Source: Vairimorpha necatrix
Lineage: Eukaryota
NCBI GenBank assembly: GCA_036630325.1
Contig: CP142729.1
Span: forward strand, 868,001-932,000
Length of the DNA: 64,000 bases
Direction: 5' to 3'
The position numbers and the translations under genes were made by a program. The notes under the pieces were generated by a model. The model saw nothing but the letters and a program-made list of their open reading frames with translations, was not told where the DNA came from and made no database searches. Of this stretch, positions 11,505 to 40,005 are shown in pieces. Each line of letters starts with the position of its first letter. Within the stretch, counting starts at the first letter, position 1.

Positions 11505-12295
11505 GGAGCCCTTAGCCCAGTGGTAGAAGGCAATGCTTCCATTGAGCAATGGGTGGGTCCGATTCCCAGGGGCACCAAAATTGTTTCTACTTTCTATGAT
11601 GCAGTTGGAACAACTCAGATGATGAAAATGTCCACGATAATCATTAAGTTGATTCAATGAAACTTGTGTGTGTCCAGCCACATGGGAATTAGGATCTAGT
11701 GTAGAAACGCACCTCAGGTCCAAAAAACAGTATCACCCCCGTGTTGACATAATGATACATAAAAGTATCTAATGGGTACGGCCTAGTTGGAGCCCATGGC
11801 TGGTGCACTCTAGAGTGGGATCCCAGAGCCAACTAAGAGACTAGACGAAGTAGGGCAATAGAAGGTCTCGTGGACCCTATCCTACAAGATTCTGTAACAC
11901 GGTGGCTGAAACTAGTGGGAGACTGGTGGTCAACGCAGCCCAATAAAAACGCCGGCTGGTGATGTGATCGTGTAAGGAGCCGTGTGTGCAATACAGATGA
12001 TTGTAGGGACCTTTGAGTCAGTACGACGATGTCTCTCCTCGGGTTATAGATAACCATGCTCGTTAAGTATATCCGCTGTGAGGTCATTCTGGACGCGATT
12101 TGAGGTATAAATGGAAAGTGTTCTCCTGAACCAAAGTGTAATGGATACGGCGGAGCTTGCTGCACCGGCAAGTTGTATGGAGGGAGTTTTAGGGATTAAA
12201 AATCTCACAGTACTAGTTGGATGAGGATAACACCCAAATCCCTCTGGTCCCTATGTAAGGTTTCTCCCTACCTCTTACTTGCAAGAAAAAAAAAA
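11505..12295 (+). mobile_element. tRNA-derived SINE, full-length copy 1
   Basis: Cloverleaf head 11505-11577 with A box TAGCCCAGTGG and B-box-like GGTCCGATTCC; ~700-bp body; A10 tail. Degenerate 15-bp TSD AACTGATCGTTCCGA (11490-11504) / AACTGTCCGTACCGA (12294-12308). Six further copies in the window. Confidence 0.85.
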
Positions 12296-13766: not shown

Positions 13767-13870
13767 GTTCCCGTAGCTCAGCGGTTGAGAGCGTGGTACT
13801 TATATGCTTAAAAGCTGTACTGATTGGCTAAGACATGCCAAGGTCGTGGGTTCGATCCCCACCGGGAGCA
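13767..13870 (+). tRNA. tRNA-Ile: tRNA-Ile(UAU) with 30-nt intron (13805-13834)
   Basis: Acceptor stem GTTCCCG/CGGGAGC, anticodon stem TGGTA/TGCCA, anticodon TAT at 13801-13803, intron after position 37, T-arm GTGGGTTCGATCCCCAC, T8 terminator directly downstream. Confidence 0.95.
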
Positions 13871-19200: not shown

Positions 19201-20098
19201 ATTTGGGAAAGTTTGAGCTACGAACGAATCAACAAGGATTGTTTCGGTTGTTTTCGTCCCGAAATATGAAGGGAAGATTATCATGATGGTCATTATTATT
19301 ACAAGAATATGATTTTGGAATAAAACACATTATAGTGGAGAAAATCCAGCGGATGTATAAAGTAGAACTGCTTGTGTTGATGCAGTATTAGAGGATAAGG
19401 AAGTGTCAGTGGAAGAGGTTCTTAAGAAACATGAGATGTTAGCACATGGTTCAGCAAAGACGCTTGTTATGTTTTGAAAGGTGATCAAAGAGAGGTAGCA
19501 GAAACCCAGGTTCGAGATATACTTAAGAATTATAAGATTTGTCATTAGATAAGCGTTCTGAAGTTTAAAAAGTCAAATTATAGTATTTAATCATTAGATT
19601 CTTTTAAATTCTGGGAGATTATATAGTTGGTCAATTAAGATTAAATTCAGAAGGAAACAAGTTTATTTTAACAATGATAGATCATTGGACAAATATGGCT
19701 GAGTGTGTAAGGGAGAAGTCGAAAGATATGGGAGTTATTGTTGAACCAATTGAACGATAGATATAGAAAAAATATGGCATACCTTAAAAGATTTTGTCGA
19801 GTAACGATAAGGAGTTCAAGAATAGAACGACGGAGGCACGGGCCAATAAGCATGGATTTAAATGGGTTTTTATATCCTTATTCTCTGAGAACTACAGGTT
19901 TGGTAGAGACATTTAATGGTACGTTTTTAGGAAGTTGAGGAAATTGTGTAGATTCGGTTCGTTTGATTAGAAAGCAGCTAGAAAAAGCAAGACATTGATA
20001 TTTAAGTTCATATCATAGGATCATAAAGTGTACACCATTAGAAAAAAGCATGATGAAACAGGAAGAGAACTTGCTGGTGCAATCGAAGGCAAACAAAA

Positions 20099-23000
20099 TG
20101 ATGTATCCCACTCTGAAATACGTCTCCAAAATACTTTTATTAAAATTCAGTTTATTATTAATATTTTTATTGTTTAATCCAGGTCTGTCCCCGGTCGTTG
20201 TTCGGTCTGTTTCCTTAATTCTTTGTTGGTTGTGTTTCATCTTGTATTGTGTGAGTCAGGGGCAATTTTTATTTATAGCTTTTATTGTTTATTTGGTACC
20301 CAAACAAACAAACAAACAAACAAAACAAAATTAATAAATGTGTGGATCTTTAAGCAAGGATACCACAACCTGCCCTCTCCATTTTCAGGCCTGCAAATCA
20401 GTTGGTGTCGTTTTTATATTGTCAACATGTATCCACTCCTTCCTTTCGTTAATTTTTATCCAATTCTTTTTCTTACTCACTTCTGTAACCATGTAAGGCC
20501 CAACGTAACAATCGTCAATCTTATTGCCTGTAAAATTCTCGACAAGCATGGTATCTCCAACCTCTAAGGTGTTGTGCTCTTTGCTACTGATATTTTCGGC
20601 CGCTCTGTCGCCTTTCTCGTCCGACCTTATTGTTATTTTAGGTTTATGATCTTTAGTTATTCTGTCCATGTCTAAGGCTGAATATCCTTTTAACACTGCA
20701 TATGGTTGTTCTTGAATTCCCCTATGAAAATTTATATTTAGTCGTCTCATAATTAATTTTGTGACCAAATTTATTTCTTCGCCTTTATACATTCTGAGAA
20801 CTTCGGCTATGGTCTGATTAAGCCTCTCGCTTATTCCGTTGGACGAAGGGTGATATGCTGGCGTCGCTATTTTCTTGATATTATTTTTTGTTAAGAATCG
20901 ATCAAATTCCGCACTTGTATACTGCTTAACGTTATCGCAGATTAATGTTTGCGGGTAACCAAATTCCGTAAACCATTTCTCAAACTCTCTCGTCAGTTCT
21001 TTAGTGGTTGATTTCTCCAATAGTGTTACTCGCGTGTATCTACTGTATATATCTGTTATTGTCAGAAAGAATCCCCGTGTACTAAGTAACGAATTTTCGT
21101 ACTCTGCCAACTCGAAGGGACCAAAAATGTCTGTGCTAATCTTATCCATCAGCTTATCTGACTCAATTTTATACTTCTTCTTTTTTCTTGTTTTCATCCT
21201 TTTGCATATTATGCAAGTTTTACAATTTTTAACTGTCTCTGAAATCTTTCGTTTAATGTCTTTTATGTTATAGATATTTCTGATGTTCTGATACATTACG
21301 GTTACTCCGGGATGAACAGTAAATTCATATATTATCTTCAGAAATTCCTTAACGTTGTTGTCTTGTATTATATATCGATTATTCTCGTCTTTTAATTGTT
21401 TTCCATTTTCTTGTACTACCAACTTTTTCCTTATATATTTTTTTAGATCTTCTATGTCCTCGAATTTATCTATCATATAACAACGTGATAGTTTATCGGC
21501 TATGTGATTAGATGTTCCTTCAATCGTGGTCAGTTCTACATCGTATTCGTTTAGAATCAATTTCCATCGTTCGGTTCTTTTTGAAATTTCCTTATTTTCA
21601 AATATGCAATTTCTACTATCAGTCTGAATTTCTATCTTGTATCCTCGTATTAATGTTCTGTAAAATTCCAATGTTTTAACGATGGCAAACATTTCTTTCT
21701 CTACAATCGTATAATTAAGCTCAGACTGCGAAAATTTTCTGCTATAATAGCCTATTACGCCGCGTTCTTGGAATAAGACTGCTCCCATCCCGTTATTTGA
21801 CGCATCGCATTGTATTGAGAACTTTTTGCTAAAGTCGGGCAGTCTTAGCTGTGCTGTAGTTTTGATCTCTTCTTTTATCTCTTTTAACGCCAAGTTTTGG
21901 GCGTCTCCCCATTTCTCTTTGCAATCATTTTTCAATAGGCGCGATATACAAGAGACTCGCCTACTTACATCTGGTAAGAAATTGCGATACCAGGTAATTA
22001 TTCCCATTATCTTCTGTATATCCTTTTTCCTGCATGGGATTGACTCTTCGTTTAATAGCTTATCGATATTTTTAGTATCTATTCTGATCCTGTCGTTTTC
22101 AATCACGTTTCCAAGTATTTCTAGTCTCTTGGTCGCAAACATGCTTTTTTCAAAATTTATTTTAACTCTGTAGTCCATTAGTCGGTTTAATACCTCTAGT
22201 AATTTCTCATTATGTTCTTCAGGAGTTGACCCATATATCACTATGTCGTCTATATAAACGATTATATTTTTGATTCCGTGTAATATATAATTAATCGTCT
22301 TTTGGAATAATTTGGGTCCTGATTTTATTCCAAATGGTATTCGTTTATATCTGTATTGTTCTCCAAAAATCGTAAAGCTTGTAATGTCTCTGCTACCCTC
22401 TTCAAGTTCTAGTTGGTTAAACCCGTTTTTTAAATCAATTTTGCTGTAATAAGTGTTTCCTCCAAGTTTATATAAACTTTCATAAATTTTTGGTATTATA
22501 CATATTTCATCTTTTATAAATTTGTTAACTGTACGATAATCAACTACTAACCTCAGTTCCTTATTTTTCTTTTCGATAAAAAATGAAGGGCTAGCATAAT
22601 AGTTTCTACCTCGTTCAATGATATCGTTGGTCAGTAACCTTGATATTTCCTTTCTAGCATCAGCCTCGTACTTTACTGGTACGGTATAGTATTTAAGTTC
22701 CAGTCTATGGTCTCTAATTTTTTCATCAATATAAAGGCTTAGCGGTTCTACCTTAATTTTATCGTGTTCTTCATTCTTTTTTATATATTCGGTCAATCTA
22801 CGTGGTATGTTCGTTTCATTTAAAATTTTCGGTTCTTTTATTAATAAAATTCTGTCATATAGTATAGCATCTATTTCTATCTCTTCTGCGCCGATCATTG
22901 GTAAAATAGCGTTGTTTACAATGATTCTTTTGTTTTTATAGTCAAGTAACCAGCCGTTGTTTAGTAAAAAATCACTTCCTAAGATCATTTTTTCTGGCAA

Positions 23001-24345
23001 ATTCTTGAGAATATGTACATCTTCATAAGTCACTTTATTTAGTCCCGCGAGTCTTATTTCCACTCTGGCTTTTTTATTAGTCTTTCCTTTTGCTCCGTTC
23101 CCAAATATAAGTGATATTTCGTCAGTTTCTTGTGTCTTTATTTTTAACTTATCAGCTATTTCGGCACTCATAAAGCTCTTATTCGCTCCGCTATCGATCA
23201 TTATGTCAATTGGAGTTTCGTTGATGGATCCCCTTAATTGAGTCTTCTCAAAATTCTGAACCTTTTCCTTTATAAAGTACACGTTTCTATTGTCTTTATT
23301 ATCGTTATTTCTTTTGTAAAAATCCTTATCATATTTAGTGCATTCCTCAGTGGTGTGGTTAGAATATTTATGCAACTTGCAGTATTTGTCTTTTTTAAAT
23401 TCTGAATGGTTATTATGCATTGGTCTATTATCATTACTATTGATGCTACGAAATTCTCTAATCTCTTTAGCTCTTATCGAAATTTTTATTTCTAAGCCCT
23501 TTAAAAATTCAAATGAAGCTTGGTAACTACCGAAGCCATATTCCAGTACTCTTCCGTACGTGAACTTCCCCAAGCCGGCATGGAAAGCTTCCTCAAATAG
23601 TCTGTCAACCTCTTCATCCATTAGTTTTTCCATTGTCCTTACGATAGTTAGATTTTGTTTAATCGCGTCATAGTATTCTTGAATTTTCGTATAGTTTGTC
23701 TGGTGTATATTTAACAATTTTCTTCTGTAGTATCTTCGTTCCTCTAGAGGAAATTTAACCGAAATTAAATATTCCTTAATCTCATTCCATGTTTCATATT
23801 TATTGTAGTCCATAAGTTTATCGTCTTTTATCAGTTGTCTTAATATTGCTAACTGTATTCTTTTATCCCATTTGTTAACTTCTATTAATGTTTCAATTTC
23901 TTGGCACCATTTTAAGATGTCCAAACTGTCGATGTCTTCTATAATTTTTATTTCTTGGCTAAGTTTGTCTTCTAGTCCTTCTATCTTCATTGAGAAGGTT
24001 AGTGATTTAGTGTTAAATTGCTGTTCTTTTTTCTTCTTATCGTATTCTTTTGGGTTCTCGTCTTTTGAGCTCAAATTGATGTATCCCACTCTGAAATACG
24101 TCTCCAAAATACTTTTATTAAAATTCAGTTTATTATTAATATTTTTATTGTTTAATCCAGGTCTGTCCCCGGTCGTTGTTCGGTCTGTTTCCTTAATTCT
24201 TTGTTGGTTGTGTTTCATCTTGTATTGTGTGAGTCAGGGGCAATTTTTATTTATAGCTTTTATTGTTTATTTGGTACCCAAACAAACAAACAAACAAACA
24301 AAACAAAATTAATAAATGTGTGGATCTTTAAGCAAGGATACCACA
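20099..24345 (-). mobile_element. Young, intact Ty3/gypsy LTR retrotransposon B
   Basis: 269-bp LTRs (20099-20367, 24077-24345), identical by eye, with TG...CA ends. TSD CAAAA. PPT AAATGGAGAGGGCAGGT. No TGG-type PBS. Confidence 0.97.
20385..24218 (-). CDS. Gag-Pol polyprotein (Gag, PR, RT, RNase H, IN), 1277 aa, single ORF
   Basis: CKLHKYSNHTTEEC knuckle, IDSGA protease, YIDD RT, CDAS RNase H, HPG..CKTC plus DDE integrase. PR-RT-RH-IN order is gypsy-type. Confidence 0.95.
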   Translation of the reverse strand: MKHNQQRIKETDRTTTGDRPGLNNKNINNKLNFNKSILETYFRVGYINLSSKDENPKEYDKKKKEQQFNTKSLTFSMKIEGLEDKLSQEIKIIEDIDSLDILKWCQEIETLIEVNKWDKRIQLAILRQLIKDDKLMDYNKYETWNEIKEYLISVKFPLEERRYYRRKLLNIHQTNYTKIQEYYDAIKQNLTIVRTMEKLMDEEVDRLFEEAFHAGLGKFTYGRVLEYGFGSYQASFEFLKGLEIKISIRAKEIREFRSINSNDNRPMHNNHSEFKKDKYCKLHKYSNHTTEECTKYDKDFYKRNNDNKDNRNVYFIKEKVQNFEKTQLRGSINETPIDIMIDSGANKSFMSAEIADKLKIKTQETDEISLIFGNGAKGKTNKKARVEIRLAGLNKVTYEDVHILKNLPEKMILGSDFLLNNGWLLDYKNKRIIVNNAILPMIGAEEIEIDAILYDRILLIKEPKILNETNIPRRLTEYIKKNEEHDKIKVEPLSLYIDEKIRDHRLELKYYTVPVKYEADARKEISRLLTNDIIERGRNYYASPSFFIEKKNKELRLVVDYRTVNKFIKDEICIIPKIYESLYKLGGNTYYSKIDLKNGFNQLELEEGSRDITSFTIFGEQYRYKRIPFGIKSGPKLFQKTINYILHGIKNIIVYIDDIVIYGSTPEEHNEKLLEVLNRLMDYRVKINFEKSMFATKRLEILGNVIENDRIRIDTKNIDKLLNEESIPCRKKDIQKIMGIITWYRNFLPDVSRRVSCISRLLKNDCKEKWGDAQNLALKEIKEEIKTTAQLRLPDFSKKFSIQCDASNNGMGAVLFQERGVIGYYSRKFSQSELNYTIVEKEMFAIVKTLEFYRTLIRGYKIEIQTDSRNCIFENKEISKRTERWKLILNEYDVELTTIEGTSNHIADKLSRCYMIDKFEDIEDLKKYIRKKLVVQENGKQLKDENNRYIIQDNNVKEFLKIIYEFTVHPGVTVMYQNIRNIYNIKDIKRKISETVKNCKTCIICKRMKTRKKKKYKIESDKLMDKISTDIFGPFELAEYENSLLSTRGFFLTITDIYSRYTRVTLLEKSTTKELTREFEKWFTEFGYPQTLICDNVKQYTSAEFDRFLTKNNIKKIATPAYHPSSNGISERLNQTIAEVLRMYKGEEINLVTKLIMRRLNINFHRGIQEQPYAVLKGYSALDMDRITKDHKPKITIRSDEKGDRAAENISSKEHNTLEVGDTMLVENFTGNKIDDCYVGPYMVTEVSKKKNWIKINERKEWIHVDNIKTTPTDLQA

Positions 24346-25188
24346 CAAAACTTTAGCTAAAGAAAGCAGGTTTATGGATTGGTGTCTAAACTTAAGGTGG
24401 GGATTTTGTTGTGTTTAATGATAAGTCAGTAAGTAGGGATAAATAAGATCCAAAATATACTCGTAAGGGGGAAATTCTGGAGAAAATGTTTGAGTCAGCT
24501 AGACTGAAATTAAATGATGGAGGAGTAGTTGTTTCAAATAAAGACCGTTAGGATTTTTTTGTAAGAGGGAAAATGAAGTATGCACTCTTCTGTAATATTT
24601 ATTCCTTATTATTTATTTCCTCAATTTATAATAAATGTATACAGACAATAATGTAGACTTAAAATTTGATCTTTGTTCGTATAAATATTTGTTTTTTTTC
24701 CTTGCAAGTAAGGCGTAGGGATCATAGGTATTTGGGCGTGATCCTTATCCAACTGATGCAATAAGATTTTATCTCACTATAATTTACCAAAAAAGTTATC
24801 GGTGTAGGTTGCCACGCCGTATTCATGGATTTGGAACAAGAAAATATTTTTAAAATATACCTTAAATCGCGTCGAAAGTGATTTCACAGCAGATATACTT
24901 AACGGCCATGAGTTTATGAACCCGAGGAGAGATATAATTGTACCAATTAAAAGTCTTTACAATCATCTTTTTGCATATACGGCTCTATACACCGCCGCAT
25001 CAATGGCTCAGCATTTTTTATTGGACTGCGTTGACCAAAGTCTTCCACTAGTTTCTTCCAAAGTGTTACAAAAAATTGTATTATAAGGTTCACTAGACCT
25101 TATATTGCCCAATTTCATCTAATCCCTTGTAGCTCTAGATTTTTACTCTAGAGTGTATTGGCCATAAGTCCAAATAGATTGTACTTAT

Positions 25189-28100
25189 TGTCGTAGCCGA
25201 TCAAATACTGACCAATCATATTCGTACAAATGGACAGATTTGATTGGTTACAAAAAGTATTTAAAAACATTTCCAAAAGAGGGGATGGAAATTTCTAATA
25301 AAGTCATTGACATGGCGACGACGACAAACAATGTCAGCTATTACACAGGAAAGGCAGGGGAGGACATTAACACCTGGTTAAGAGACATCATGTTGCTAGG
25401 TGAAATATCCAGCTGGACCGAAAAGCAGTACAAAATAGTTTTTATCAGCAAACTTAAAGGAAAGGCTTTATCTTGGGCTTCACAAACATTAGTAGGGAAA
25501 ACAGAATTATTGTCAGTGGAAGAGATAATTACTGGTTTGAAGAAGAGATTTGGCTCATCCAGGAACAATGACATAACTTTAACCAGATTCTTAGCATTAA
25601 CAGTCCCAGAGACTAGAAAAGATTATTCACAGATGTTGCAGGAAGCAACAGTGATATACGAGCGAGCGCTTATCAACCTTGATGCGTTATGCCAAATGAT
25701 AATCAATAAATCGCCTATAGAGATCAAAGCTCTCTTATATCAGACCGCCACTACAGTTCAGACTTGGCAGGAATTCATGCAGAAAGCCGAAGAAATATCT
25801 TGGATCCCATATCCGGATAAGATGCTAGCTAGGACCGAGATTCACAACAACACGGGCAAAGGGCCCAACATTACAAACAACCACAAGAGAAGACGCAAAG
25901 AAAACAGGACTTACCAAAAATCACCGAGATATAACAATAAACACTGCACACTTCATGAAGAATGCAATCACTACACAAGGGATTGCAAAGTGCTAACTAA
26001 TATCCTCCAAAGGGAGAGAAACAATGTAAAAAGAAAAGGTATTAACGAGCTAGAGGAGTATAAAAGCGAAGAAGAAACGGCAATAAATAAAGAAAATGAA
26101 TTTTACTTGCATCGTTTAAAAAATAATTCTAATCCGTTTTTTGTCCAAAGCCGTATGTTTAATAAAAATATAAAAGCTTTATTGGATACTGGTGCCGATT
26201 TTTCTTGTATAGATTACAATGAAATCCCACTCGAAGAACGGAATAAGATCATAAAATATAATGGGGTGGTAAGAGGCATAGGTAAAGAAATTTTAAAAGT
26301 GGAAGGATACTTAAAAGACTGTACAATCAAAATTAACGGTAAACGTGTGAACTTCTCTCCCCTAATAATTAAAGACACTAAGTACACTATAGTAGGAGCA
26401 AACGTAATATGTAAGAACCGAAAACTAATTCTGGACATTTTAAACGCCCCAAATCGTGGAATAAATCAAATATCTAATCTCACGGAACACTCAGAAGAAA
26501 ATAGAATCTTTAAAGAATTCGAAGACGTATTAAAAACCGAAATAGGAGACTATAATCTCTGCACTGCGGGAAAACATCGAATACTGACAAACAGCACTAA
26601 GATCATTTGTCAAAGAAATGGAAGAATCCCAATAACACAAGAGGAAGCTGTCAACGACGAAATAAGCAAACCATTAAAGCTTGGCATACTAAGGGAAAGC
26701 ATGAGTCCTTGGCGCAGTAGAATACTTATGGTACCAACCCCCGATAAAACATGGAGAATGTGCGTCGACTATAGAGGGCTTAACAGTATAACTATAAAAT
26801 ATGCATATATGACTCCAAGAATAGACGAAATATTTGACAGTTTATCAAATGCGACTATTTTTACAATATTGGACGCTACGAGCGAGTTTCACCAAATACC
26901 CTTACAAGAAGAAGAAGATAAAGAAAAAACAGCATTCTCATATAGGGGACGACTATACGAATTTAATCGTATGCCTTTCGGTCTTTGCAACGTCCCGGCA
27001 ACTTTTCAAAGAGCAATGGACAATATATTTAGAAAAGAAAACCACAATTTCGTGATACCATATTTAGACGACATAATAGTATATTCAAAAAATAAAGAAG
27101 ATCATATGAAACACGTGAAGATAGTACTAGGAAAAATTAGAGCCGCAAATCTATCGCTGAATAAAAATAAGTGTAAGTTTTTTAGATCCGAAATAAAGAT
27201 TTTGGGAAATGTAATAGGACACGGAATTATAAAGATAGATGAAACGCGTATCAAAGATATACAAGCATATCCGATTCCTTCTACTATAAAGGAATTGAGA
27301 AGTTTTTTAGGAATAGCAAATTATTGTAGAGATTTTGTGAAAAAAATGGCGGAAATCACGGGTTCTTTGTATGACATACTCAAAGGCGAAAAGCAGACGT
27401 CGAATAAAAAAATAACCCTTACTGATGAGCAACTAGATACATTTAAAATTGTAAAAAAAGTATTAAGCCAGAATACCATACGTACACAGCCAAATTTTCA
27501 TGCTCCCTTTATATTAGTGACAGGCGCGTCTGAAACGGGGATTGGAGCAGTACTTTTACAAAAGAATAAATGAGGAAATGAAAAGATGATAGCTGCATTC
27601 AGCAAGAGACTTGATAATTGCAAAAAGAACTATTCGGCAACCGATAAAGAACTCCTTGGTTTAGTAAAAGGGATAGAACATTTTAGGCGTTATCTTTTGG
27701 GAAATAAGTTTACACTAAGAACAGATCATAAAGCTTTGATCTACCTATGGACAGTAAAAGACCCGACAAGTAGGATTCTCAGGTGGGCCCTTAAACTAGC
27801 GGAATACAATTTTGAACTTGAATATATAAAAGGAGAACATAATATAGCGGATGGTTTTAGTAGAATCAATCAAGAGCATGAAACGTGTAACATCAATGCA
27901 CACCAGTTAGCGAATAATACCAAAAATATACTAGAAGAGTACCACAAGATTTCGGGACATGGATCGCCAAATACCATGAAATTCATGATCGCACAGACAT
28001 ACAAATGGAAAAACATGCATCAAGATATATCCCAATTCGTAAACAATTGTGAAACGTGTTTACGCTCTGGATACAAACGCGTGAAAACGAAAAATAAGGT

Positions 28101-29046
28101 TATACTCTCTGAAAGACACCCAACTAGCTATGGGAATTCGATCTTTTAGGTAGACTCTCTGACAGCAATGGAAGTGGATATATATTCGTTGCAATCGATC
28201 ATTATTCGAAGTGGATAGAGGCCAAGATTTTACGAAGTAAAAAGGGTTCTGAAATATATGATGCGATCGAAGAACACTTCATTAGTAAACATGAAATACC
28301 CGAGAGAGTCTTGACAGACAACGGGTTAGAATTTGACAATTCAGAAGTACAATCACTAGCGAATAAATATAATATATCATGGGAATTTTGTTCCTTATAC
28401 CATCATCAAACCACAGGCGCCGTCGAAAGGGTCATACAGACATTAGCGAACAAAATAAGAAAATTATCGAATTATGGCAAACTTAGCTGGAGAAAGGTCG
28501 TTAAAGAAGCCACCTTGGCAGTTAATTTATCTTTTAATCGATCAATAGGAACTTCTCCGTATATATTAAGATTTGGTCAGCAAATAAAAACAGCTGTAGA
28601 CGAGAAAATGGGCGTTACTCCTAAGACCTATACTAGGCAAGAGTTATTACGAAAACGAGACCTAAACTTGTGAAAAAAACAGTAAGGCTATCGTCAAAGG
28701 GAAAATGGAGATAAAAGAAAAGCTTAAGGTTGGCGAAAACGTTTTAATATATAGAGATTATCCAGGGGGAGGTAAATTGGAAGCTAAATGGATACCAGGC
28801 TACATCATAATCAAAATTTTAAGCGAAGATGCATTTCTAGTAAAAAGAAGAAATACTTTGGGGGAACTGAGAGTCAATAAAAGTCATATTAAAAAGGATA
28901 CGTCAAAGACTAATTGAGGGGGTGTCGTAGCCGATCAAATACTGACCAATCATATTCGTACAAATGGACAGATTTGATTGGCTACAAAAAGTATTTAAAA
29001 ACATTTCCAATAGAGGGGATGGAAAATTCTAATAAAGTTATTGACA
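25189..29046 (+). mobile_element. Ty3/gypsy LTR retrotransposon C (3.86 kb)
   Basis: 124-bp LTRs (25189-25312, 28923-29046; 4 mismatches by eye). TSD CTTAT. PBS TGGCGACG. PPT GAGGGGG. Confidence 0.96.
25285..28917 (+). pseudogene. Gag-Pol of element C, disrupted
   Basis: LDTGA, YLDD, RNase H (catalytic D appears as G in VTGASE) and integrase. In-frame TGA at 27571-27573, frameshift near 28120, further stop at 28671. Confidence 0.9.
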
Positions 29047-29372
29047 CTTATCATGCACTTTTATGTAAGAAATAGTCAACAATGGTGATAATGTTTCTGG
29101 CCTTAAAGTGCGTTTCTACTCTATATGCTAATTCCCTCTTGGCTAGACATATACAAGTTTCTTTGAATCAACTTAATGATTATCGTAAATATTTATATCG
29201 TCTGAGTTGTTTCAACTGCATCATAGAAAATAAAAACAATTTCGGTGCCCCCGGGATTCGAACCAAGACATTTCTTAATTGAAGCATCATATTATACTAC
29301 TGCCTAAGCGCACCTTTAGAATTATTACCATTAACGATATACTTTGGAAATTATATAATCTACATTTTTTAT

Positions 29373-30892
29373 TTAGAGCCTCTTTACAGTTAGCTTATTA
29401 ATAAGCTCCAGTTGAAACAGTTTCCGAGCTAGTTCATAGCTGTATATTCCAAAATTCTTCAGAAACTCTGTCAAATTGTAAGATATATACAAGGCGGGAT
29501 CTAGGTCAAAACAGAGCAAATAAATATTACGCGCTTCTTCATACAAAACTTCTTCAGCAATGACTCTTAAACCAATGTAAAGTATATATGGATCTAAAAC
29601 TTCGTTTATAAGATCACAATTGCAACACTCCAATTCTTCAAAACAATTTTAAAGGAGAGTTAGATGTCAACTGGTCGTTATTACATTTTAAATATTTTTT
29701 ATTGCGTCAGTTTAATTACCATACGTCATAACATGGGCCGTAATTGTGACAAAATACCATGGCAATTATATTAACATCAACAGCCCATCAAATAGTACAG
29801 AAGCTTACATCCAAATGAGATTTATAAAGAAGACAACAGAGTGCATCTCCTTTGAAACCGGCAGGACTCGGGAAGGAGGATCTGGAACTAAGTACATAGT
29901 AGAGGAGCTAGAAGGTGGTGTAACCAGATAGAGTACACGGCAGTTGAGGCGAATTGAAGAAAAAACCACAATAATAGCTCAAAAATAAATTATATTGCAT
30001 CGGGATTTCTTCTTTAATATCGTGCCACTTGTAAGATCTAGCAGCAAGAATATTCTGCTTGCTGGGAACCATAGATTTTTTTGAGATCTTTGAACACATC
30101 TATGTGTTCTCGGTGATCTCATATATATGCGCAATCTGAAGGTTGACACCATCATTTAAAGAATCAAACTTTACTAATGGTCCTAAAATTTTGAAAACTC
30201 CGAGCGCCTCTGTAAATTTTCTCTCCTTTTTGTAACAGATCCCTATTCTGTACATAATTTTGAGTACTTTCGGGAGTTTCACGTCGGCAGATAGGATTAG
30301 GATAAACCACTCCGGGACAAAACAAAGTTTTTTAAAAGATCGTAATTAATCGTAGACCCTAGAAGAGGAATACATCATACTACGATGTATATAATATGAT
30401 AAAAAATTATCGTAGGCTTCTACGTCCTGACCCGTCTTTTACAAAATATGCCCTTCTAAAATAGTGGCACATATTTGTTTCGGGTCCACGGATCTAATTT
30501 TATCTACAATCTCTTTTGTTAATTCTAAATTGTCCTGTTGCAAGAAGCATTTCCCAAGAACGTAGAGAGAATTTATGTTCTTGGGATTGACCAATAATGC
30601 TTCATTACAACATTTAGTGGACTCCCGTATGTTAAGATATATCTTATTTTTATAGCTTCGAACCTTCTTACTTATTTCAAGGTTTTCGAATGCAATTTCC
30701 ATTTGTGAGTAATTGGCTTGCTTTGTAATACAAAACCTGTGTTAAAGGCGTCTTTATATACATTTGGTACTTTTTAACCAGTACTTTATTTGGTAATTTT
30801 CTTTTTGGGCATTTTTGTTCAATTGTTGTATTTTGTCCTTTTCCAATCGAAAAGCAGGGGCTAAAAAAAAGAAATTTTTTTAGAAAGTTCAT
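29373..30892 (-). pseudogene. TPR-repeat protein pseudogene, copy B (most complete; Ssn6/Cyc8-like)
   Basis: TPR-like segments CCNEALLVNPKNINSLYVLGKCF and IMYRIGICYKKERKFTEALGVFKIL...NLQIAHIYE. Several stops and frameshifts. The Cyc8 resemblance is from memory, not a search. Confidence 0.7.
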
Positions 30893-31091
30893 TGATCTGT
30901 TTGACAGATCAATAGTGTTACTCTTTAGTCAAAAAATCTTTCAAAGATGTCGGTTAAATTATCTAAATAGAAACAACGTAGGATTCCACGCATTTTTTGT
31001 ATATATTCAACAAGTCGCTAGTCTATCCAATTGAAAGATACATGAGAAAACCCAATTGATTTTGGGAACAATACTCTGATATAAAAAAATC

Positions 31092-32198
31092 GGTGCATCT
31101 TTAGTAACGTGCCGGAAGGTAACACCCCCCTTACAAAAAAAAATTTAACAAAATTTTGAAAAAAATATGAAAACGATATAAAAATGCTTATTTAATTCAG
31201 TAGTTTAAATAAAAGATCAACAAACCCCTTATATAAGTCTCCCATATCATCTTCTCGAAGTATAAATTTCCTATACATAAATTCATCGAGCCATGTATCT
31301 ATCTCCGACCGTTTTACTCCATGTTCTTTGGTCATTTCAGACTTAAGTTAGACCATACGTTCTCAATATTATTTGTATGAATACCATCAGGAGATAAAAA
31401 ACCTATAGAATGATTAACAACTTGATAACTTAGACATAAATTTTCTGCCACCCCGGAATAACTAGGATGACCATCGCTATGTAAAACCGAACCTACACCA
31501 ATTCTTCCCTCTAGAGAAGCAGTAAGGCACTCAATGGTTCTATTCTCTATCCTCGTAATGTAGAAGTTTGAAGGATTTTGAGCATCTATTATGCCCAAAA
31601 TACAAACGGTGTCCCTTATAAAGTCGTCCGAAGAGGTAGGAGATCTTATTTTACCCCCTCTGCATATAACAGACTCATCTACTTGAACGACTTGCCCGGG
31701 TCCTCCGATTATAATTCTATTCTTTAGTATATATTTATAGATCTTTCGGAGGCTGCTTTTTACGGCAGAGATTGTAGCTGTTGAAACGCCTAATCTTGCC
31801 ATCAACTGAAAGTAAGAATATCTGCATAATATTCCAAATACAAGGTCACAGAATGTTTGAAGAGGGACCTTGCATCCTTATTACCAGCCAGCCCGCACTG
31901 CATTTGTAGTTCGAACAGCGATATGCTACTCTTGTAACGATTTCTTCCTTGACAGGACCCAATCTCATGTTACATCCACATTTTGAACATGATTTTTGCT
32001 CCTTCAGCACTTCTAATTCAATTAAAGCTTCTAAACAGGCGTCAACGTTATGGAAAAGCCTTTGTATATACACAAGTTTCATTTTTGTGCTTTTCTTTAG
32101 TAACGTGCCGGAGTTTTCTAAATCGACGTTTTCCATTTTAGGGGTAAAAAAATATTTTTTAAAAAAACAAAATCCGGGCACGTTACTAAAGATGCACC
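31092..32198 (-). mobile_element. Merlin transposon M6 (same family as M1), frameshifted
   Basis: Same TIR as 391-1504. TSD AAAAAATC (31084-31091 / 32199-32206). Paralogous empty site at ~16450-16470. Confidence 0.95.
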
Positions 32199-32693
32199 AA
32201 AAAATCAAGTATGTAAAAAGAAACTTGAAATTGTTTAACACATTTTTTTTGTATTTTATTATAAGTCAACCCCAAATTTACATCTATTCATATTGTATTT
32301 CTTTTTGTAAAAATCATACATCCATATTTTAAACTTCTCCTGTCTGAGTGCAACTCTTTATAACATATGAACAAATAAACATAAAACTCGTTTTTAGCAA
32401 TATTAATTTTTGTCAAATTTCAAATAAAATCCTTTTATTAAGGAGTTTAAATAGTCGACTGGGTATTTTTAAGAATAAAAAAGTTAACTAATTAATCTGT
32501 TGAAATTTAAACTAATTCTTTTTTTTTTGACCTCAAATATCCAGAGTTACGAGTATAGTTACGAATAGGCGTTCTTTTCTTATCTTGGACCAATGTTTCA
32601 AGCACGTTACATTTTTATCAATATAACTAAATGATCAATTCAGTTTTTATGTAGACTTAAAATTTGATTTTCGTTCGTATTAATATTTGTTAA

Positions 32694-33454
32694 TTTTTTT
32701 AACTTTGCGAGTAAGGCGTATAGATCATAGGTATTTGGGTTTTATCCTTATCAAACAGATTTAGTAAGATTCTTACTTACTATAATTTGTCATAAAACAT
32801 CATTGCAAATTGTTAAGCCGTATACATGGATTTTAGACAAAGAGAACATTTAAATATATGCATCAAATCTCGTCAAGGACGATTTCGCAGCAGATATACT
32901 TAACGGCCATGAGTGTAATAGCTTGAGAGAGACATCATTGTATTATCTCAATGATCTCTACATAATCTATATCGCATATACGACTCTTTACACCGCCACA
33001 TCATTAACTCTGCATTTTTTATTGGACTGCTTTGATTCGAAACGTACACTAGTTACGGCCACCGTGCTTCAGAATATTAGTATAGGAAACTACTAGACCA
33101 TCTATCGCCTTACTTCGTCTAGTCTTTAGTGAGCTCTAGGACCCCACTCTAGAGTGCACCAATTATAGCCCTTAACTATGCCGTACCCATCAGATACTTT
33201 TATGTATCATTAAGTCACCACATGTGGTGGGATCCTGTTTTAGGTCTTCAGGTGCGTTTATACACTAGATTCTAATCCCTTTGTGGCTGGACACACTAAG
33301 TCGCATGAATCAACTTAATGATCATCGTTGGCATTTTCATCGTCTGAGTTTTTCCATTGCATCATAGAAAGAGAATCGTTTTGGTGCCCCTAAGTATCAA
33401 ATCAAGCCATTGCTAAATTCAAGCATCGCCATCGACCACTGGGCTAAGGTTGCC
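32694..33454 (-). mobile_element. SINE copy C (old)
   Basis: Alignable by eye to copy 1 over its whole length, including the tRNA-like head at ~33382-33454. Confidence 0.8.
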
Positions 33455-33699
33455 CGCAAGAATTTCAGAAAGGAAGGAAACTGGGCTCAACAGAATCCTA
33501 TATTTCAAGATAATGATTTTGCAATAGACTTTCGAATAAATTTAGATGAAATAATGCCCAACAGCTTATGTATTTAAAATCATGTTTAGGTAACATGTCC
33601 GTGCTATAATTATTTTCTCAATTTATGAGAAAAAGAACATATGTATTGAAAAATTCAAAAAAAATAATAATTAAGAAAAACACTTGATTATAGATTAAC

Positions 33700-34330
33700 C
33701 ATCGAATTTTAGAAGATTCTGAAAGGTTTATCTGCGGGTATTTTCTTACTTAAACTATAAAGCTAGTTTATATCTTCAAAATAGCCGAGTCAACATATAT
33801 TTAAAAAAAAATAATTTTTGGATATTCTAAGCAAGACTTCTTGAAAATAAAAAATATAGGAAGAAAATATACGGGTTAAAGTCGCTGAAACTATCATATT
33901 AAATGGCTTAGAAATTGTCAATCTGTCTTCATAGAAGACGATACTACTAAAATACAATTGATACTTGGAGGAGTCGAAGAGGTGATTGAACGAAATTTAT
34001 GTTACATTAATTCCTAACGGAAAACACGAAACTTTGCAAGTAGAGTTTAAAAACGCATACTTATGTGAACTATTATTGTTACTGATGGATATACATCATA
34101 CACTAATGCCGTGGATAATTTTGGATTAAAGCATAAAATAGTAAATCATAGGAAGAATTTGAAAACAACGAAGGTGGAGATACAAATAAGATTGAAAATT
34201 ATAGTTTATACTTAAGATACGATTATAGAAAAAGCCGTGGAACAAATCATGATCGTATCAATAAATTTTTAGAAGATTTTTCTTGACGCAACAGACGTTG
34301 TCAATATAGAAAATTTTTTTCTATTCCTAG
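33700..34330 (+). pseudogene. Decayed Merlin transposase
   Basis: Fragments ILGGVEE, IIVTDGYTSY...HKIVNH and GGDTNKIEN. Termini not resolved. Confidence 0.6.
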
Positions 34331-34373
34331 TGCCCCTTCTTTATTTTTGCAAAAATGTCTAGTAACTAATTAT

Positions 34374-35407
34374 GTCCAATATCAGAATTAGTGTAAAAAA
34401 ATAGGGAGTCAAGATTTTTAAAAAATTGCCCCTTTTCTAAAAAAGAAAGGGAAGTTAAGCAATGAGGAAATCAAAACTTTTATATATATAGCAAACAAAC
34501 AATACTACCAGAAAAGTATAAAATGAGGTTGGTAAAGAAGAGTATCAAATGAAACCGCCCTTGAGGTGTAAGGCTGCAAAATGTAAAACATAATTTTCAA
34601 TTTGGAATCATACTGTATTTGCATACAATTAAGCAGAATATTTACTTTTGTTATAAATAGTAAATTTCTGGATTTTAGAAATAAAAATAATTAATATATT
34701 AAGAATTTCGGAAAGTAACATACAAAAATTAAGTTTTCCCTAGAAGTTATATAAATTAAAAATTCATGAGAAGCGTATATATAATATAAAGCGGATAAAA
34801 GAGAAATTTTTTATAGTAGAGAAAGATGAGAGTAAAATCGTCAAAATTAAATATCGTAGGGTGAGGCTTGTTAAGGGGGTTTGGTGTTTCGGAATTGTAA
34901 AAAAACCGAAGCAAAGGAGATAGTCCTCGTAATAAATAATAAAAGAAACAAAGATACATTGTTTTCCATCGTGCTTAAATTGGTAAATCTCTATATATCA
35001 TCCATTCGGTTATATGGAAGGCATATATACTTTAAGAAATTATTATGCGGACCTTATAACTGTAAATCATAGTCGAACATATAAACAGAGTTACAGATGT
35101 TCATATAAACATCATCAAAAAATATTAAGAACCTTTTATGCTCATATACCCAATAAAAGTAAGACATACGAACTTGCCGAAATTTATTAACTCTATATAT
35201 GATTAAAAAAAATGAGAGAAATGACACTTTTAAAGTATTATTAATATTAAATTTATAATTTGTATATAATTAAATGATATTTAATTACATTTTTATTTAA
35301 TACAAGTTGGTTTTTTTTTTGAAGTTTCTCTTTCTTTCTTTTTTTAAAAAAGGACAATTTATTTAAAATTTTGATCCCTCTTTTTTACGCTTATGCTGAT
35401 ATTAGAC
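34374..35407 (+). mobile_element. Decayed Merlin element with ~75-bp imperfect TIRs
   Basis: GTCCAATATCAGAATTAGTGTAAAAAA... pairs with ...TTTTTTACGCTTATGCTGATATTAGAC. Remnants KYRRVRLVKGVWCFGIV and TVNHS resemble M5. Confidence 0.7.
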
Positions 35408-35767
35408 TTAAATGTCTGTTTAATAATTTTTTTAGATGGATGAGACGAATTTTTCAATAGGGACAATTATTTTACACATTAGCAATTGGCAAAGCTTTAA
35501 ATCGCAATCTCTTTATACGTTTCTGATTTTTGTTCTTTAGTTTTTTACTACGATTCTTTAATTCTTTATTCAAAACAAATATAATTTTTAATATAGTCTT
35601 TTTTTTAGTCCATATTATCCCATAAATACTGAAGATCGTTTAAATTTTTATTATCGCATAATGCGGTCATTTAGTAATAGTTTTAGAAAAAAATTTTACA
35701 CGAAATTATTGAACAAATAAAATTTTTTGTGACTCAATAATATCAAAAGTATTTTTTTCGTAATAGC

Positions 35768-38543
35768 TGACGTTATTACTGGGGACTTTACCAATTTTAA
35801 AATACATTTCTAAACAATTGTTTATTAAAGGCTCTTTTGGACTGTATTGGTCTTTGTTTGTTTGTTCTTGTCATTGCTTTGCTGATGACTTTTCTTCTTG
35901 TAGCTCATGCCCTTCTTTTCAAAAATAAACATTTATAAAAAATAAAATTCTAGAAAATTCATTTTTTCTAGAAAAAGTTTTTATCAGAAAAAATGACTCT
36001 CTTAACATGTGGATAATACCACAGTCTGCCTCTACTAGAACTTTAGATAATTGACGTGAAACTTTTATTCCCCTTTAACCTGGCCCATATCCTTTCTTAC
36101 TAACCGCTTCAATTCTTCGTAATTTTGTAAACTTATATCCAAGCTTATCAGGATTTAATAAGCGTTCTCGGCAGAAACCTCCCACTTTAGCTATCTGTAT
36201 AGTATTTGTTGCACTATAAGGATATTTATATGATATTGGTCTTCGCATAGGATCCTATAAATTCTCATAATACTCAAATAATTTATAAGGCACTTCTCTC
36301 TTGATGATCTCATATGATAAATCCTTGACACTTCTATTTGTGTACTGAATGACGGCATTTTTATAGAATCATTTTCCTGCTTAATATCGAAGACTTTAAG
36401 AATATTCGACTTCAGATCTAATTTATAGAAATCATTTATACTGGAACTTAGAGACAAAACTTTATCATGTAAGGAATTATTAGAATCATTCTTAGACTTC
36501 TTCTCTACATTTTTATCAGAAGACATAGTAGACACTTTATTAGGGCGCTTAGTCTCTTTTATTAGACTCTTGTTTTCAATCTCTTATAGAGAACTTTTCC
36601 TAGATTTCTTCTTTTCTTGTAGTGAGCTGTCAAATTTCTCATCTTTATTTTCATCTTTAATTGAACTTTTGTTATTTTGTTAGTAGAGACCAACAAATAT
36701 ATTTGTCTTTTCATCTTCGCTAACAATACATGACTTATTTTCTAAATATTTATCTAGTCGTTCTCCAGCTTCTTCCTCCATTCCTTGAATTTCTAATAAT
36801 ATCTTATCGATTTCTACCACTCCTGCTTGATAGTCAACTTTCGCGTTAACATTGTGGAAGAAATCGTTGCCCAGGATGAAGTTAACAGGAGCCTGTTCTA
36901 ATACGTAAAAGCTAGTGTTAAAGGCCCTATCCTTTTGAATAATTCTACATTAACCTTTTTATCGCATTTTAAGGTTGTATTGTTTCCAAAAATTGTTTTA
37001 GCCTTTGGCCTTTGACGACTTGTAATTTCAGTCGATTCACTTCTTCTTTATTAAAATAATATTTTTTTGATCCGCTGTCTACTTGAATCTCAACCTTTTG
37101 ATTATTTATTGTTACTTCCACTATAACATCTTCAATTATTTTTTTTCTTAATTTAATTGTCACACGACATCCTTCCAATCCCTCTAAAGATATAGAAGAG
37201 CTATAGACACGAATCTCTCAGTCGAACTGTCAAATGACTGGGATGCTCTTTGTTTACGATGGCTCATCGTAAACAAATAATAAACAAAATATAAAGTGTT
37301 TAGAAACGCCAAAACACTCGAAATATGCTAACTTCTATTATTCCATAATTATCCCGCCTTTTCTTGAAAGATGAAAGGGCGGGAAAATAAAACTATAAAA
37401 AGAGATTATTTCTAGCCCTTCACCGAGATATGAAAGAGCAGAATTACGATAAACAATTTACTAAAAAATCTTATTTAGACACACCGAGCAGCCAGGGAGG
37501 CAGCCCGTGTCACATTAATATTCATATTTTTGTCAGGTTTATAATACTTTCTTGTCTTTGTTTATTTTATATTTTGTTGCAAGGAGCAATGTTTCGTATC
37601 GTGGAAAAGTTACTCTTATGAAAACTACACCAATTCTTCTCATTTAAGTTACCAGCTTCTGAGTTATAGTTCGAATCATTTGATTTAGCTTTTGACTCAT
37701 GTTTATTATAAATTCGTTTTCAACTTGAATTAGATATTCATAAATTTCATTTATAAATCTATTAATCATATTCAAACGCGTTAATTCCAAATGCGTGAAA
37801 TTGCTCAATTCCTTTAAAAATAATTCTTATTTTTTATTTTAGGTCTCCTTCTTAGTGAGACTATTGTAGTAATTATATGCTAAAAGTCTTTCTCTTACAA
37901 TCTCCTCATACTTTTAATGGTACTATAATTGGCTTGATTAATAGCATCTAAATACCTGATGCCTTGTCTCTTTCGCTCAGGCGGATAAATTATATCTAAT
38001 GGCCTTTTTCTAAGAAATAAATACGAGTTACATGTAAGAGCTTCTTTTCTTTCATCGTATTTGCAAAAAGTATATATGGCCATTTGTTCATCTTTCCCTT
38101 TTTTTGCTTTTCCTAATTCTTCAAACTTAGAAGTTGTTTAATTGTGAACTGAGTTTTGATATCGTATATTTTTAATATTTTTTCTTTACACTTTATAGTG
38201 TTATCTATTTTGTTCTTTTCGAATTCAGTATACCCATCTTCTATAATGTTTCCTGGGTTACTGTTAACGTTTAACTCGTTGAATTCAACTTGATGTTATC
38301 ACTGGGGACTTTGCCTAGTTTAAAATACATTTCTAAATAATTGTATATTAAAGGCTCTTTTAGCCTGTATTGGTCTTTGTTTGTTTGTTCTTGTCATTGC
38401 TTTGCTGATGACTTTTCTTCTTGTAGCTCATGCCCTTCTTTTTAAAAATAAACATTTATAAAAAATAAAATAGAAAATTCATTTTTTCTAGAAAAAGTTT
38501 TTATCAGAAAAATTGATTTTCTTGACATGTGGATAATATCACA
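35768..38543 (-). mobile_element. Non-autonomous LTR element E (Gag-protease plus RT stub), related to B
   Basis: ~255-bp LTRs 35768-36023 and 38291-38543. TSD ATAGC on the left; the right copy is decayed here but intact in the paralog at 63879-63883. PPT TAGTAGAGGCAGAC. Protease VDSGS near 37070. No YxDD, RNase H or integrase seen. Confidence 0.85.
37158..37514. mobile_element. Solo LTR (357 bp) inserted in element E
   Basis: Ends TGTCACACG...CGTGTCACA. 5-bp TSD TTAAT (37153-37157 / 37515-37519). Internal 13-bp-stem hairpin at 37249-37277. Confidence 0.75.
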
Positions 38544-38949
38544 ATGCAAATACGCTTTTTTGAATATAAGAAATACAGGCTTTCATTTGGCATATAAATT
38601 TTAAAGTACAATATTTTTTATTAATTTTCTTCATATTTCTCATTCTCTAGTCTTACTTTGATAAAAAGCTTTTCAAGATCTACCGAAATCCGCCATAAGT
38701 CTATGCGTAAAATAATAGTAGAGGCCATTCTTAATTTTATATTTCTTATGACAATACTCTATTGGACACTTAAATGGCTTCACCATTTTTTGTTTCTCTT
38801 CTGAGTAATAGTTAGTATGATAATTTAAACCATTCAAACTTGTAAGCTTTGATTTGCAAAATGTGCAATCCTATTCCCACTTGTTTCTCTTTCTTACATT
38901 AGATTTCTCATTATATGTGGTATCTCACCGCCTTTCTTACTTCTTTTGT

Positions 38950-39372
38950 CTACAACCCTATTTCTCTTAGTCTTTTATAATACGTATCTAGTACATTCTT
39001 CTCAAATGTGCTTATTACTTCATCCTCAAAACTATTTTTCAGTTTCATGAGTATTGAGAAGTCGTCTATTACTCCACAATAAATATACATTTGTATTATA
39101 TAAGAGTCAACAGGACTGTTACAATCAAGAAATTGTAACTTGTCATTGATAAACTCGCAACTTGGAATACAGGAAAAATTGCTATACAAATTTTCAGTTG
39201 TAATGTTGGACATTACAACTAGATTATCAATAGCTCTTTCTTCTTTCCATGTAAGAGCCGGCTCGTTTTTTTTGTAAAAAGAAAAAAGATTCAAATTTTT
39301 GAGTTCGGAGTCCGCAGAAGAGTTTAAGTCAGAACTATTATTCATCAAAAATTTGTCTTTCTCAAATGACAT
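38950..39372 (-). CDS. Hypothetical protein, 140 aa (possibly the 5' part of a longer decayed gene)
   Basis: ORF is conserved in the inverted duplicate 63055-63477 with 3 aa differences. No recognisable domain. Confidence 0.45.
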   Translation of the reverse strand: MSFEKDKFLMNNSSDLNSSADSELKNLNLFSFYKKNEPALTWKEERAIDNLVVMSNITTENLYSNFSCIPSCEFINDKLQFLDCNSPVDSYIIQMYIYCGVIDDFSILMKLKNSFEDEVISTFEKNVLDTYYKRLREIGL

Positions 39373-40005
39373 GTGGAGTCAAAAATGTTTTTTATAAATA
39401 AAAGAAAGTTTCTATGGTAAATATTTTCTAGAAAGAGTATACTCGAAATTAATTATTGCAAAAAAATGTGTTGTAATGACCTCCATCACAAAGTAAATTC
39501 AAAAAATTGTTTTACTAATATTTAACAGTATGAATATGATCTGTACTTTAAAGTTGTCAAATGAATCATAAAAATGATATATTTGTTACATAAGATTCTT
39601 AACAGATATAAGTACTTAACACAATTGGGTTTAATATTATTACTGAATATAACATCCCCCTCCAGACGGTTAGTCTCCTTCAACATACTTTAAATCGCCT
39701 ACACCCTTAAGATCATAATGCCTTTTTTCACTTAACTTCCATTCTGTAATCACACTATATATGAATACCCTTGGCATAGCTCAATCACTCTTCCCATGTC
39801 TAAAAATCGACCCTTACTATACTTACTACATCCCTTTAAATTTTCATTCTTAGCAACCCTAACTATCTGGTTCCTTAAAAACTTTTCTCTGAACCAACTT
39901 TTAAACTGCTGCGCATACTTTCCCTCTGGACTATTTTCCATACTAACATTTCCTGTATTATCGGTTAGAGCTTCTACTGGCGTGCACTTAATACCAGCAT
40001 GAAAA

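Follow-up and report, generated by a model that had tools for sequence, protein, structure and literature searches.

We analyzed a 64,000-nt stretch of the genome of the microsporidian Vairimorpha necatrix (contig CP142729.1, positions 868,001 to 932,000; hereafter the window), which contains several long terminal repeat (LTR) retrotransposons. In two of these, elements B and E, the TGG-type, tRNA-complementary primer-binding site next to U5 is absent, as an earlier note on this DNA had reported, and a perfect 12-nt palindrome is present at LTR+2 instead. The palindrome starts 1 nt after the U5 end and, as far as homologous sequences indicate, is usually located within the Gag coding sequence.

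Element B (24345 to 20099 on the minus strand, 4247 bp) is an intact Ty3/gypsy element (Table 1). It has TG...CA ends, a 5-bp target-site duplication and a single open reading frame (ORF) with the order protease (PR), reverse transcriptase (RT), RNase H and integrase (IN). Pfam domains in the polyprotein are the protease (residues 329–418), RVT_1 (548–703), RT_RNaseH (795–892), Integrase_H2C2 (954–1006) and rve (1027–1124). Integrase follows RT-RNase H, which is the gypsy domain order and not that of Ty1/copia elements, to which the GalEa clade belongs. No chromodomain was found in B among Pfam matches at E ≤ 0.001, and the closest named relative of the B protein carries the annotation "Tf2-6 polyprotein". 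A V. necatrix protein that is 99% identical to the B polyprotein over 69% of the length of B represents a second copy. Together with the identical LTRs and the open Gag-Pol frame, both already described in the earlier note, and with the target-site duplication, this copy indicates that B was recently active.

Because the TTTTG target-site duplication flanks the element, the LTR end at CATCA is fixed without any model, and the palindrome therefore begins at LTR+2. The ORF starts inside the 5' LTR, where the start codon is preceded by a TATAAATA box and a CCCC motif, which we take to resemble microsporidian start-site signals. It then runs across the site in the frame ...GYI-N-L-S-S-K-D (ATC AAT TTG AGC TCA AAA). 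Both the LTR start of the ORF and the location of the site inside Gag had been overlooked in the earlier note, as had the interruption of the frame in E (see below). The U3 region of B also contains a near-palindrome, TTTGGGTACCAAAT (24269–24282, minus strand, present in the 3' LTR as well), with TTTG/CAAA arms like those of the site. Its pairing with the B site was no better than that of shuffled sequences (36% equal), and nothing alike was found in E.

Element E (38541 to 35768, minus strand, 2774 bp) is a degraded relative of B, and its Gag frame is broken by a frameshift or stop right after the palindrome. No blastn similarity was detected between B and E in either LTRs or interiors, in agreement with the strong LTR divergence noted earlier, and the B polyprotein gave no tblastn match in E. 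Despite this divergence, E can be recognized as a relative of B because Gag proteins of the family described below match it (best query P0049, E = 8.5e-30). The element is flanked by TGCAT on the 5' side and GCTAT on the 3' side. The E 5' LTR and 1.07 kb of its upstream flank are duplicated in inverted orientation (62819–64000 versus 38436–39608, 97% identity), and this copy, which includes the start of a third E-type LTR, is evidently a segmental duplication and not an independent insertion.

The window also provides a comparator element with a canonical TGG-type site. This site lies 1 nt after the LTR end (...CACA), the same spacing as in B and E, and thus at the same LTR+2 offset. The comparator ORF also begins in the LTR and continues through the primer-binding site, so the course of the B ORF through the LTR end and the site is not odd in itself. 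The comparator encodes Gag and protease only (521 aa) and looks like a recently mobilized non-autonomous element with a TGG site inside its ORF. Two further CAATGGTGATAATGT sites were found in the window, at 29080 and 51847. The earlier statement that three other elements (A, C and D) have TGG sites is borne out in part, by one clean element and these two sites.

Table 1. Features of elements B and E, the comparator element and the related contig L018. Positions are those of the window, except for L018, whose rows use the positions of that contig.
Feature	Position	Strand	Description
B 5' LTR	24077–24345	-	269 bp, TGTGG...CATCA; holds TATAAATA box and Gag-Pol start codon at 24218
B 3' LTR	20099–20367	-	269/269 identical to 5' LTR
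B target-site duplication TTTTG	5' copy 24346–24350; 3' copy 20094–20098	-	5 bp
B spacer A	24076	-	1 nt between LTR end CATCA and palindrome
B palindrome TTTGAGCTCAAA	24064–24075	.	LTR+2..+13; encodes (N)-L-S-S-(K) of Gag
B polypurine tract GAAAATGGAGAGGGCAGG	20369–20386	-	1 nt 5' of 3' LTR
B Gag-PR-RT-RNaseH-IN ORF	20385–24218	-	1277 aa; start inside 5' LTR, continues across palindrome
E 5' LTR	38291–38541	-	251 bp, TGTGA...CATCA; 93% identical to 3' LTR
E palindrome GTTGAATTCAAC	38278–38289	.	LTR+2..+13 after spacer A at 38290; encodes (K)-L-N-S-(T)
E interior	36022–38277	-	degraded; Gag and protease remnants interrupted by stops and frameshifts; RT and IN absent
E 3' LTR	35768–36021	-	followed by GCTAT
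Third E-type LTR, start only	63886–64000	+	ended by window edge before site; 5' flank GCTAT, as E 3' flank
Comparator element	45829–48226	+	2398 bp; identical 226-bp LTRs; target-site duplication GAAAC
Comparator spacer A	46055		1 nt
Comparator site TGGTGGTAACGG	46056–46067		canonical TGG type
L018 purine tract	1580–1596
L018 putative LTR	1597–1734		138 bp, TGTCG...CAACA; end inferred
L018 palindrome TAATTGATATCAATTA	1735–1750		16 nt, directly after putative LTR end; Gag ATG at 1751

The palindromes of B and E were found 1 nt past CATCA, as the earlier note had claimed. Their four differences, at positions 1/12 (T-A to G-C) and 6/7 (GC to AT), are all compensatory, so that pairing is kept throughout. 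Perfect 12-nt palindromes occur 47 times in the 64000 nt of the window (7.3e-4 per position), and an exact 12-nt palindrome at LTR+2 in both B and E is not expected by chance. A 14-nt palindrome, TTTTGACGTCAAAA (4878–4891), is of the TTGA..TCAA type like the family sites; there is neither Gag homology nor an LTR around it.

A HMMER search with residues 1–330 of B Gag identified 159 homologues at E ≤ 0.001. Named sources were Nosema granulosis, Dictyocoela muelleri, D. roeselum, Vairimorpha apis and a Mikrocytos mackini transcriptome, and the rest were contigs of approximately 1–16 kb, most of them near 4 kb. When the family proteins were searched again locally, 151 sequences passed the same threshold, 99 of which extended for 30 residues or more on the N-terminal side of a common anchor. 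An iterated hidden Markov model of the motif region aligned just 18 rows; because pairwise phmmer misaligned the variable linker, anchor-relative intervals were used. In the family, U5 encodes a conserved S-[IL]-L-E-x-Y-F...G peptide, which is followed by the variable linker and then by the site peptide (for example NLSSK, KLNST, NLISK, KMSSL, RMISL, IMSSW, NVSSR, KLSLT, MLNLT, NLLTK, ILHAK or NLDPK). Hexapeptides were scored as compatible with the site architecture if codon 1 can end in C, codon 2 can start with A, and the 12 nt from the third base of codon 2 can be a perfect palindrome. Such a hexapeptide was present at -51 to -16 from the anchor in 83 of the 99 proteins, compared to 14–28 of 99 in four control intervals of equal width; per position, 3.8% of hexapeptides were compatible in the site interval versus 0.55–1.1% in the controls. 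The 16 proteins without a match were mostly N-terminally truncated ORFs, and two of them (P0045 and P0079) carried the motif just outside the interval. P0045, from the M. mackini transcriptome, is a complete family polyprotein of 1366 aa with the motif D-K-M-N-S-S; either the family is expressed in M. mackini or a microsporidian was present in the sample.

Covariation was examined in all [LMV]-x-S matches within the same -51 to -16 interval, chosen without regard to palindromy (95 foreground and 878 background matches; Fisher tests). Central residues with potentially self-complementary codons (N, S, I and T, by AAT, AGC, ATA and ACG) outnumbered those that cannot have such codons (K, R and M) by 70:2 in the foreground, against 261:125 in the background (p = 6e-9). 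At pair 2, the first base of the next codon was A-only versus T-only in 39:0 cases with Leu and in 0:6 cases with Met (p = 1.2e-7), and in all four Val cases the next residue was able to start with C. At pair 1, the next residue was K/N/S/R versus T/I/M in 17:0 cases with a preceding Asn (AAY) and in 0:6 cases with a preceding Lys (AAR; p = 1e-5). The residue two before Leu/Met/Val could have a codon ending in C in 69 of 70 cases (background 189 of 261, p = 8e-8), and the residue directly before it a codon starting with A in 63 of 70 (background 104 of 261, p = 7e-15); these enrichments fit a conserved LTR-terminal CA.

Rarer peptide classes alter both sides of pairs 4 and 5 (LLT, TTGTTAACAA; LHA, TTGCATGCAA; LDP, TTGGATCCAA; LSL, TTAAGCTTAA), and the chemically unrelated peptides LHA, LDP, LLT, LSL, LNL and VSS all stay palindrome-compatible. 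In total, 75 rows yielded 30 different inferred palindromes, which have nothing in common but palindromy and T-A as the third pair. Gag trees from which the motif had been excluded required at least 31–33 changes at pair 1, 12–15 at pair 2, six each at pairs 4 and 5, and 25–26 at pair 6. Proteins of N. granulosis imply at least five different palindromes and those of D. muelleri at least four, and B and E differ within one window. Since one host genome carries several different palindromes, no single host primer could match them. Altogether, the palindrome architecture appears to have been kept in about 75–83 of the 99 Gag homologues.

DNA of a further family member was found in L018, a 4502-bp contig binned in a bacterial metagenome-assembled genome (MAG). 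It is a circularly permuted assembly of a 4312-bp unit with a single LTR. The 99 family Gag queries gave 25 tblastn matches to it (best E = 3e-11), and its pol is 34% identical to P0143 in the best segment. The 16-nt palindrome of L018 holds a stop in the Gag frame and is non-coding, so the palindrome is not a coding artefact. It is the sole palindrome of at least 12 nt in this contig that is not AT-only, and its 12-nt core, ATTGATATCAAT, also occurs among the protein-derived palindromes. The earlier proposal of a covarying palindrome that replaces the tRNA site, drawn from B and E alone, is strengthened by the Gag homologues, at the level of protein-derived compatibility, by the DNA of L018 and by the several palindromes per host; tRNA-independent priming, the function assigned to the site there, is an interpretation here as well.

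The profile scan of genome contigs that revealed L018 (alignment A3) returned 10 loci, among which the only other family member was L017, with its N-terminus off the contig. No match was obtained with P0143 as a query against the genome contigs, and scans of viral contigs returned 16 loci, all through a single alignment query and none of the Gag family, with L011 and L005 being unrelated gypsy elements. L017, L018 and L019–L026 are eukaryotic Ty3/gypsy contigs inside bacterial MAGs of public collections, that is, contamination.

Predicted pairing energies of the site differ strongly between one and two molecules. The homodimer duplex was predicted at -15.3 kcal/mol for the B site and -14.0 kcal/mol for the E site, with hairpins at 0.0 and -1.1 kcal/mol, respectively. 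When the site was cofolded with 40 nt on either side, 12/12 palindrome bases were paired between strands in B, E and L018, with gains of -14.1, -11.8 and -12.4 kcal/mol, and the tRNA-site control gained -5.8 kcal/mol with 7/12 bases between strands. No stem enclosing the palindrome was present in the predicted folds, and global folds of the R-U5-site RNA were ordinary for B (z = -0.34) and mildly unusual for E (z = -1.93).

In LTR elements, the U5 end is the start of minus-strand synthesis and is set by the 3' end of the primer, which pairs with the base that follows the spacer. In B and E this base is palindrome position 1, and the last bases of the primer must therefore be the complement of the 5' half of the palindrome, which is the palindrome's own 3' half. 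The required primer sequence differs among elements, which implies that the primer is encoded by the element. The only element-encoded matching sequence is the palindrome on the element's own RNA, and this RNA is most likely the primer. Our favored explanation, to which we give an even chance, is that B and E are members of a clade of Ty3/gypsy elements with a single ORF in Microsporidia, where the tRNA site has been replaced by a perfect palindrome of 12 nt or sometimes more and reverse transcription is primed by a dimer of two RNAs.

From the position and palindromy of the site, its conservation as seen in covariation, the lack of an LTR complement and the predicted energetics, we propose how pairing in trans, cleavage and extension might proceed. 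The palindromes of two co-packaged genomic RNAs would pair to form a 12-bp duplex, and one of the RNAs would be cleaved where its palindrome ends on the 3' side; the analogy with Tf1 suggests the element's RNase H as the probable enzyme. The new 3'-OH would be extended on the intact partner across the spacer, U5 and R to yield minus-strand strong-stop DNA. The plus-strand strong-stop product could copy the 12 nt of primer RNA and so gain homology for plus-strand transfer, for which the intact partner RNA would retain its site. A broader version of this scheme, which we hold more tentatively and at somewhat below even, is that reverse transcription is obligatorily primed by the genome dimer, with one genome sacrificed as a primer of about 150–200 nt. 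Dimerization, packaging and initiation would in that case coincide in a single event without any need for host RNA, and GalEa elements would have arrived at the same principle independently with their palindromic site.

To our knowledge, DNA synthesis is primed by a borrowed host tRNA in almost all LTR retroelements and retroviruses, and Tf1-type self-priming is the sole worked-out exception. Ty1 of Saccharomyces cerevisiae resembles B in that its Gag ORF has its start inside the 5' LTR and its primer-binding site is part of the coding sequence; however, the primer of Ty1 is the initiator tRNA-Met. Retroviral dimer linkage palindromes, such as the dimer initiation site (DIS) of human immunodeficiency virus 1 and PAL of Moloney murine leukemia virus, are self-complementary, are located in the 5' leader, covary and pair two genomic RNAs. 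These palindromes exist alongside a tRNA site and lie either in a hairpin loop or farther downstream, whereas here the palindrome occupies the primer site. Self-priming is known for Tf1/sushi elements, including Tf1/Tf2 of Schizosaccharomyces pombe, Maggy, Skippy and sushi (PMC6317226, PMC6934838). The mechanism proposed here resembles theirs in being tRNA-independent, in using the element's own RNA as primer after endonucleolytic cleavage at the border of an RNA-RNA duplex, and in the single Gag-Pol ORF. In Tf1, however, the first 11 nt of the transcript pair with the site in cis, whereas here the site pairs only with itself; the primer would be about 150–200 nt compared to 11 nt in Tf1, and B has no chromodomain.

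The closest precedent is in fungal GalEa Ty1/copia elements of Pezizomycotina, in which a Conserved Hairpin Site composed of CHSeq1 and CHSeq2 was described by Donnart et al. 2017 (PMC5445492). Like B and E, these elements have no tRNA site in that description and carry a short conserved palindrome where the 5' LTR ends, with compensatory variants (CTGATCAGT and CTAATTAGT). The authors proposed the palindrome as a replacement of the primer-binding site and, in their account, no known model fits. The elements described here are Ty3/gypsy and occur in Microsporidia. According to the account of the GalEa site, its palindrome is 10 bp including the last LTR base, compared to 12 nt from LTR+2 here, and it is non-coding, whereas the site here is usually inside Gag. 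In addition, a complementary CHSeq2 is located 12–41 bp downstream in GalEa. For B no such downstream partner was found (best -4.8 kcal/mol, 73% of shuffles equal), and in E the match is limited to 9 bp at +50 (1.2% of shuffles equal), inside the Glu-Phe codons of a conserved Gag motif. Our literature search, which covered mostly open-access papers in their main texts, brought up no report of a palindrome at the primer site of microsporidian or Ty3/gypsy elements; the text of Parisot 2014 (PMC4202319) mentions neither a primer-binding site nor a primer nor a palindrome. What appears to be new here is a self-complementary, tRNA-independent primer site in another superfamily and host group, together with its family-wide covariation, its coding context and the argument for dimer priming.

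Several other explanations of the palindrome have to be weighed. It might be a dimerization and packaging signal only, like retroviral dimer initiation sites, with another primer starting the minus strand; we regard this as unlikely. Long perfect palindromes near the primer-binding site do serve as retroviral dimer linkage sites, and the homodimer duplexes predicted for B and E are strong; a role in dimer linkage is also among the ideas discussed by Donnart et al. (PMC5445492). However, the target-site-defined U5 end puts the primer 3' end on the palindrome itself, and between the LTR and the palindrome there is only 1 variable nt and no other conserved sequence. A real site further downstream would make the palindrome an LTR sequence, and a second copy would then be expected at the 3' LTR, where the palindrome is absent. 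A retroviral dimer initiation site also comes with a hairpin loop and a separate primer-binding site, and neither was found here. A fold-back in cis, in which cleavage of the RNA behind the palindrome lets the 5' fragment fold on itself and self-extend, was one of the two geometries offered in the earlier note. It too would give a 3'-OH at LTR+2, and a hairpin has been proposed for GalEa elements (PMC5445492). We nevertheless consider it somewhat less likely still and favor pairing in trans, the other geometry, since a 12-nt palindrome allows a stem of 4 bp at most, with near-zero predicted stability, while the homodimer is strong and all 12 bases pair between strands in the cofolds. The central pairs 5 and 6, which would be hairpin-loop positions, are constrained across the Gag homologues and covary in the LLT, LHA and LDP classes. 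B has no downstream partner, and cutting the sole template after the site would deprive plus-strand transfer of its site unless a second RNA were used anyway.

A palindrome that acts as double-stranded DNA or binds a dimeric protein, as a regulatory or integration site unrelated to priming, is quite improbable. A dimeric DNA-binding protein would also select for full-length palindromy including the center, but at least 30 inferred sequences share only palindromy and the T-A third pair, which a sequence-specific protein would not tolerate, and the primer would be left unexplained at the very place where it must bind. Priming at the site by a host tRNA, a tRNA half or another host RNA has half-tRNA priming of Copia-type elements as a precedent (PMC6317226), and yet it is very improbable: there is no TGG, several palindromes occur per host, and no fixed host RNA would explain the covariation. 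Lax Rfam scans gave no tRNA-like match at the B or E site, and the single tRNA gene of the window shares just AGCTCA with the B site. The chance of Tf1/sushi-type self-priming by the transcript 5' end is slim indeed. The annotation of the closest named relative of B would agree with it, and Tf1-type elements likewise lack tRNA sites (PMC6317226). On the other side, B has no chromodomain, and the Tf1 site is not palindromic as presented by Donnart et al. (PMC5445492). In RNAduplex comparisons of the site with the whole LTR, shuffles did as well in 36%, 5% and 21% of cases for B and in 83–99% for E, in line with the earlier report that no LTR segment is complementary to the site. Finally, a chance origin, or selection that acts on the Gag peptide alone, is barely credible. 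The B site is coding and approximately 3.3% of random pentapeptides are palindrome-compatible, but this is opposed by the enrichment in the Gag homologues over the controls, by the chemically unrelated peptide classes and by the non-coding palindrome of L018.

Several points count against dimer priming at the palindrome. The family evidence is palindrome compatibility deduced from proteins, in which wobble bases are unseen, and the rows are related, so the Fisher p-values given above overstate the evidence. Well-supported branches provide two independent contrasts for pair 2 and one or two for pair 1, all in the expected direction, and a sign test on them is not significant. DNA is represented by three elements only (B, E and L018), of which E is degraded and L018 has an LTR end inferred from a collapsed single-LTR assembly. 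A symmetric duplex could also be cut on both strands, leaving neither template with the site, and the scheme therefore has to assume an asymmetry. The downstream hairpin partner of the GalEa palindrome hints at a cis structure in that lineage.

If priming by a palindrome-paired RNA dimer is correct, these elements would represent a second solution to priming without a tRNA, maintained by covariation throughout a parasite-borne clade and within coding sequence, and a new way to define the U5 end. Genome dimerization would be linked to initiation, the unexplained palindromic site of GalEa elements would be accounted for, and the old question of different roles for the two packaged RNAs would be touched upon. 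The signature "CA, 1 nt, palindrome" could be used by annotation pipelines for elements reported without a primer-binding site.

Other features of the window include the tRNA gene mentioned above, detected with Rfam at 13767–13870 on the plus strand (104 nt, 52.3 bits) with an apparent intron; ARAGORN reported none in the window. It looks like a tRNA-Ile (UAU) gene and is located between inverted 785-bp repeats (11508–12292 and 14960–14181, 90% identity). A 315-aa ORF at 453–1400 on the plus strand contains an ISXO2/IS1595-type DDE transposase domain and is presumably Merlin-like; the region around it (387–1511) has a 95% identical inverted copy at 32202–31085.

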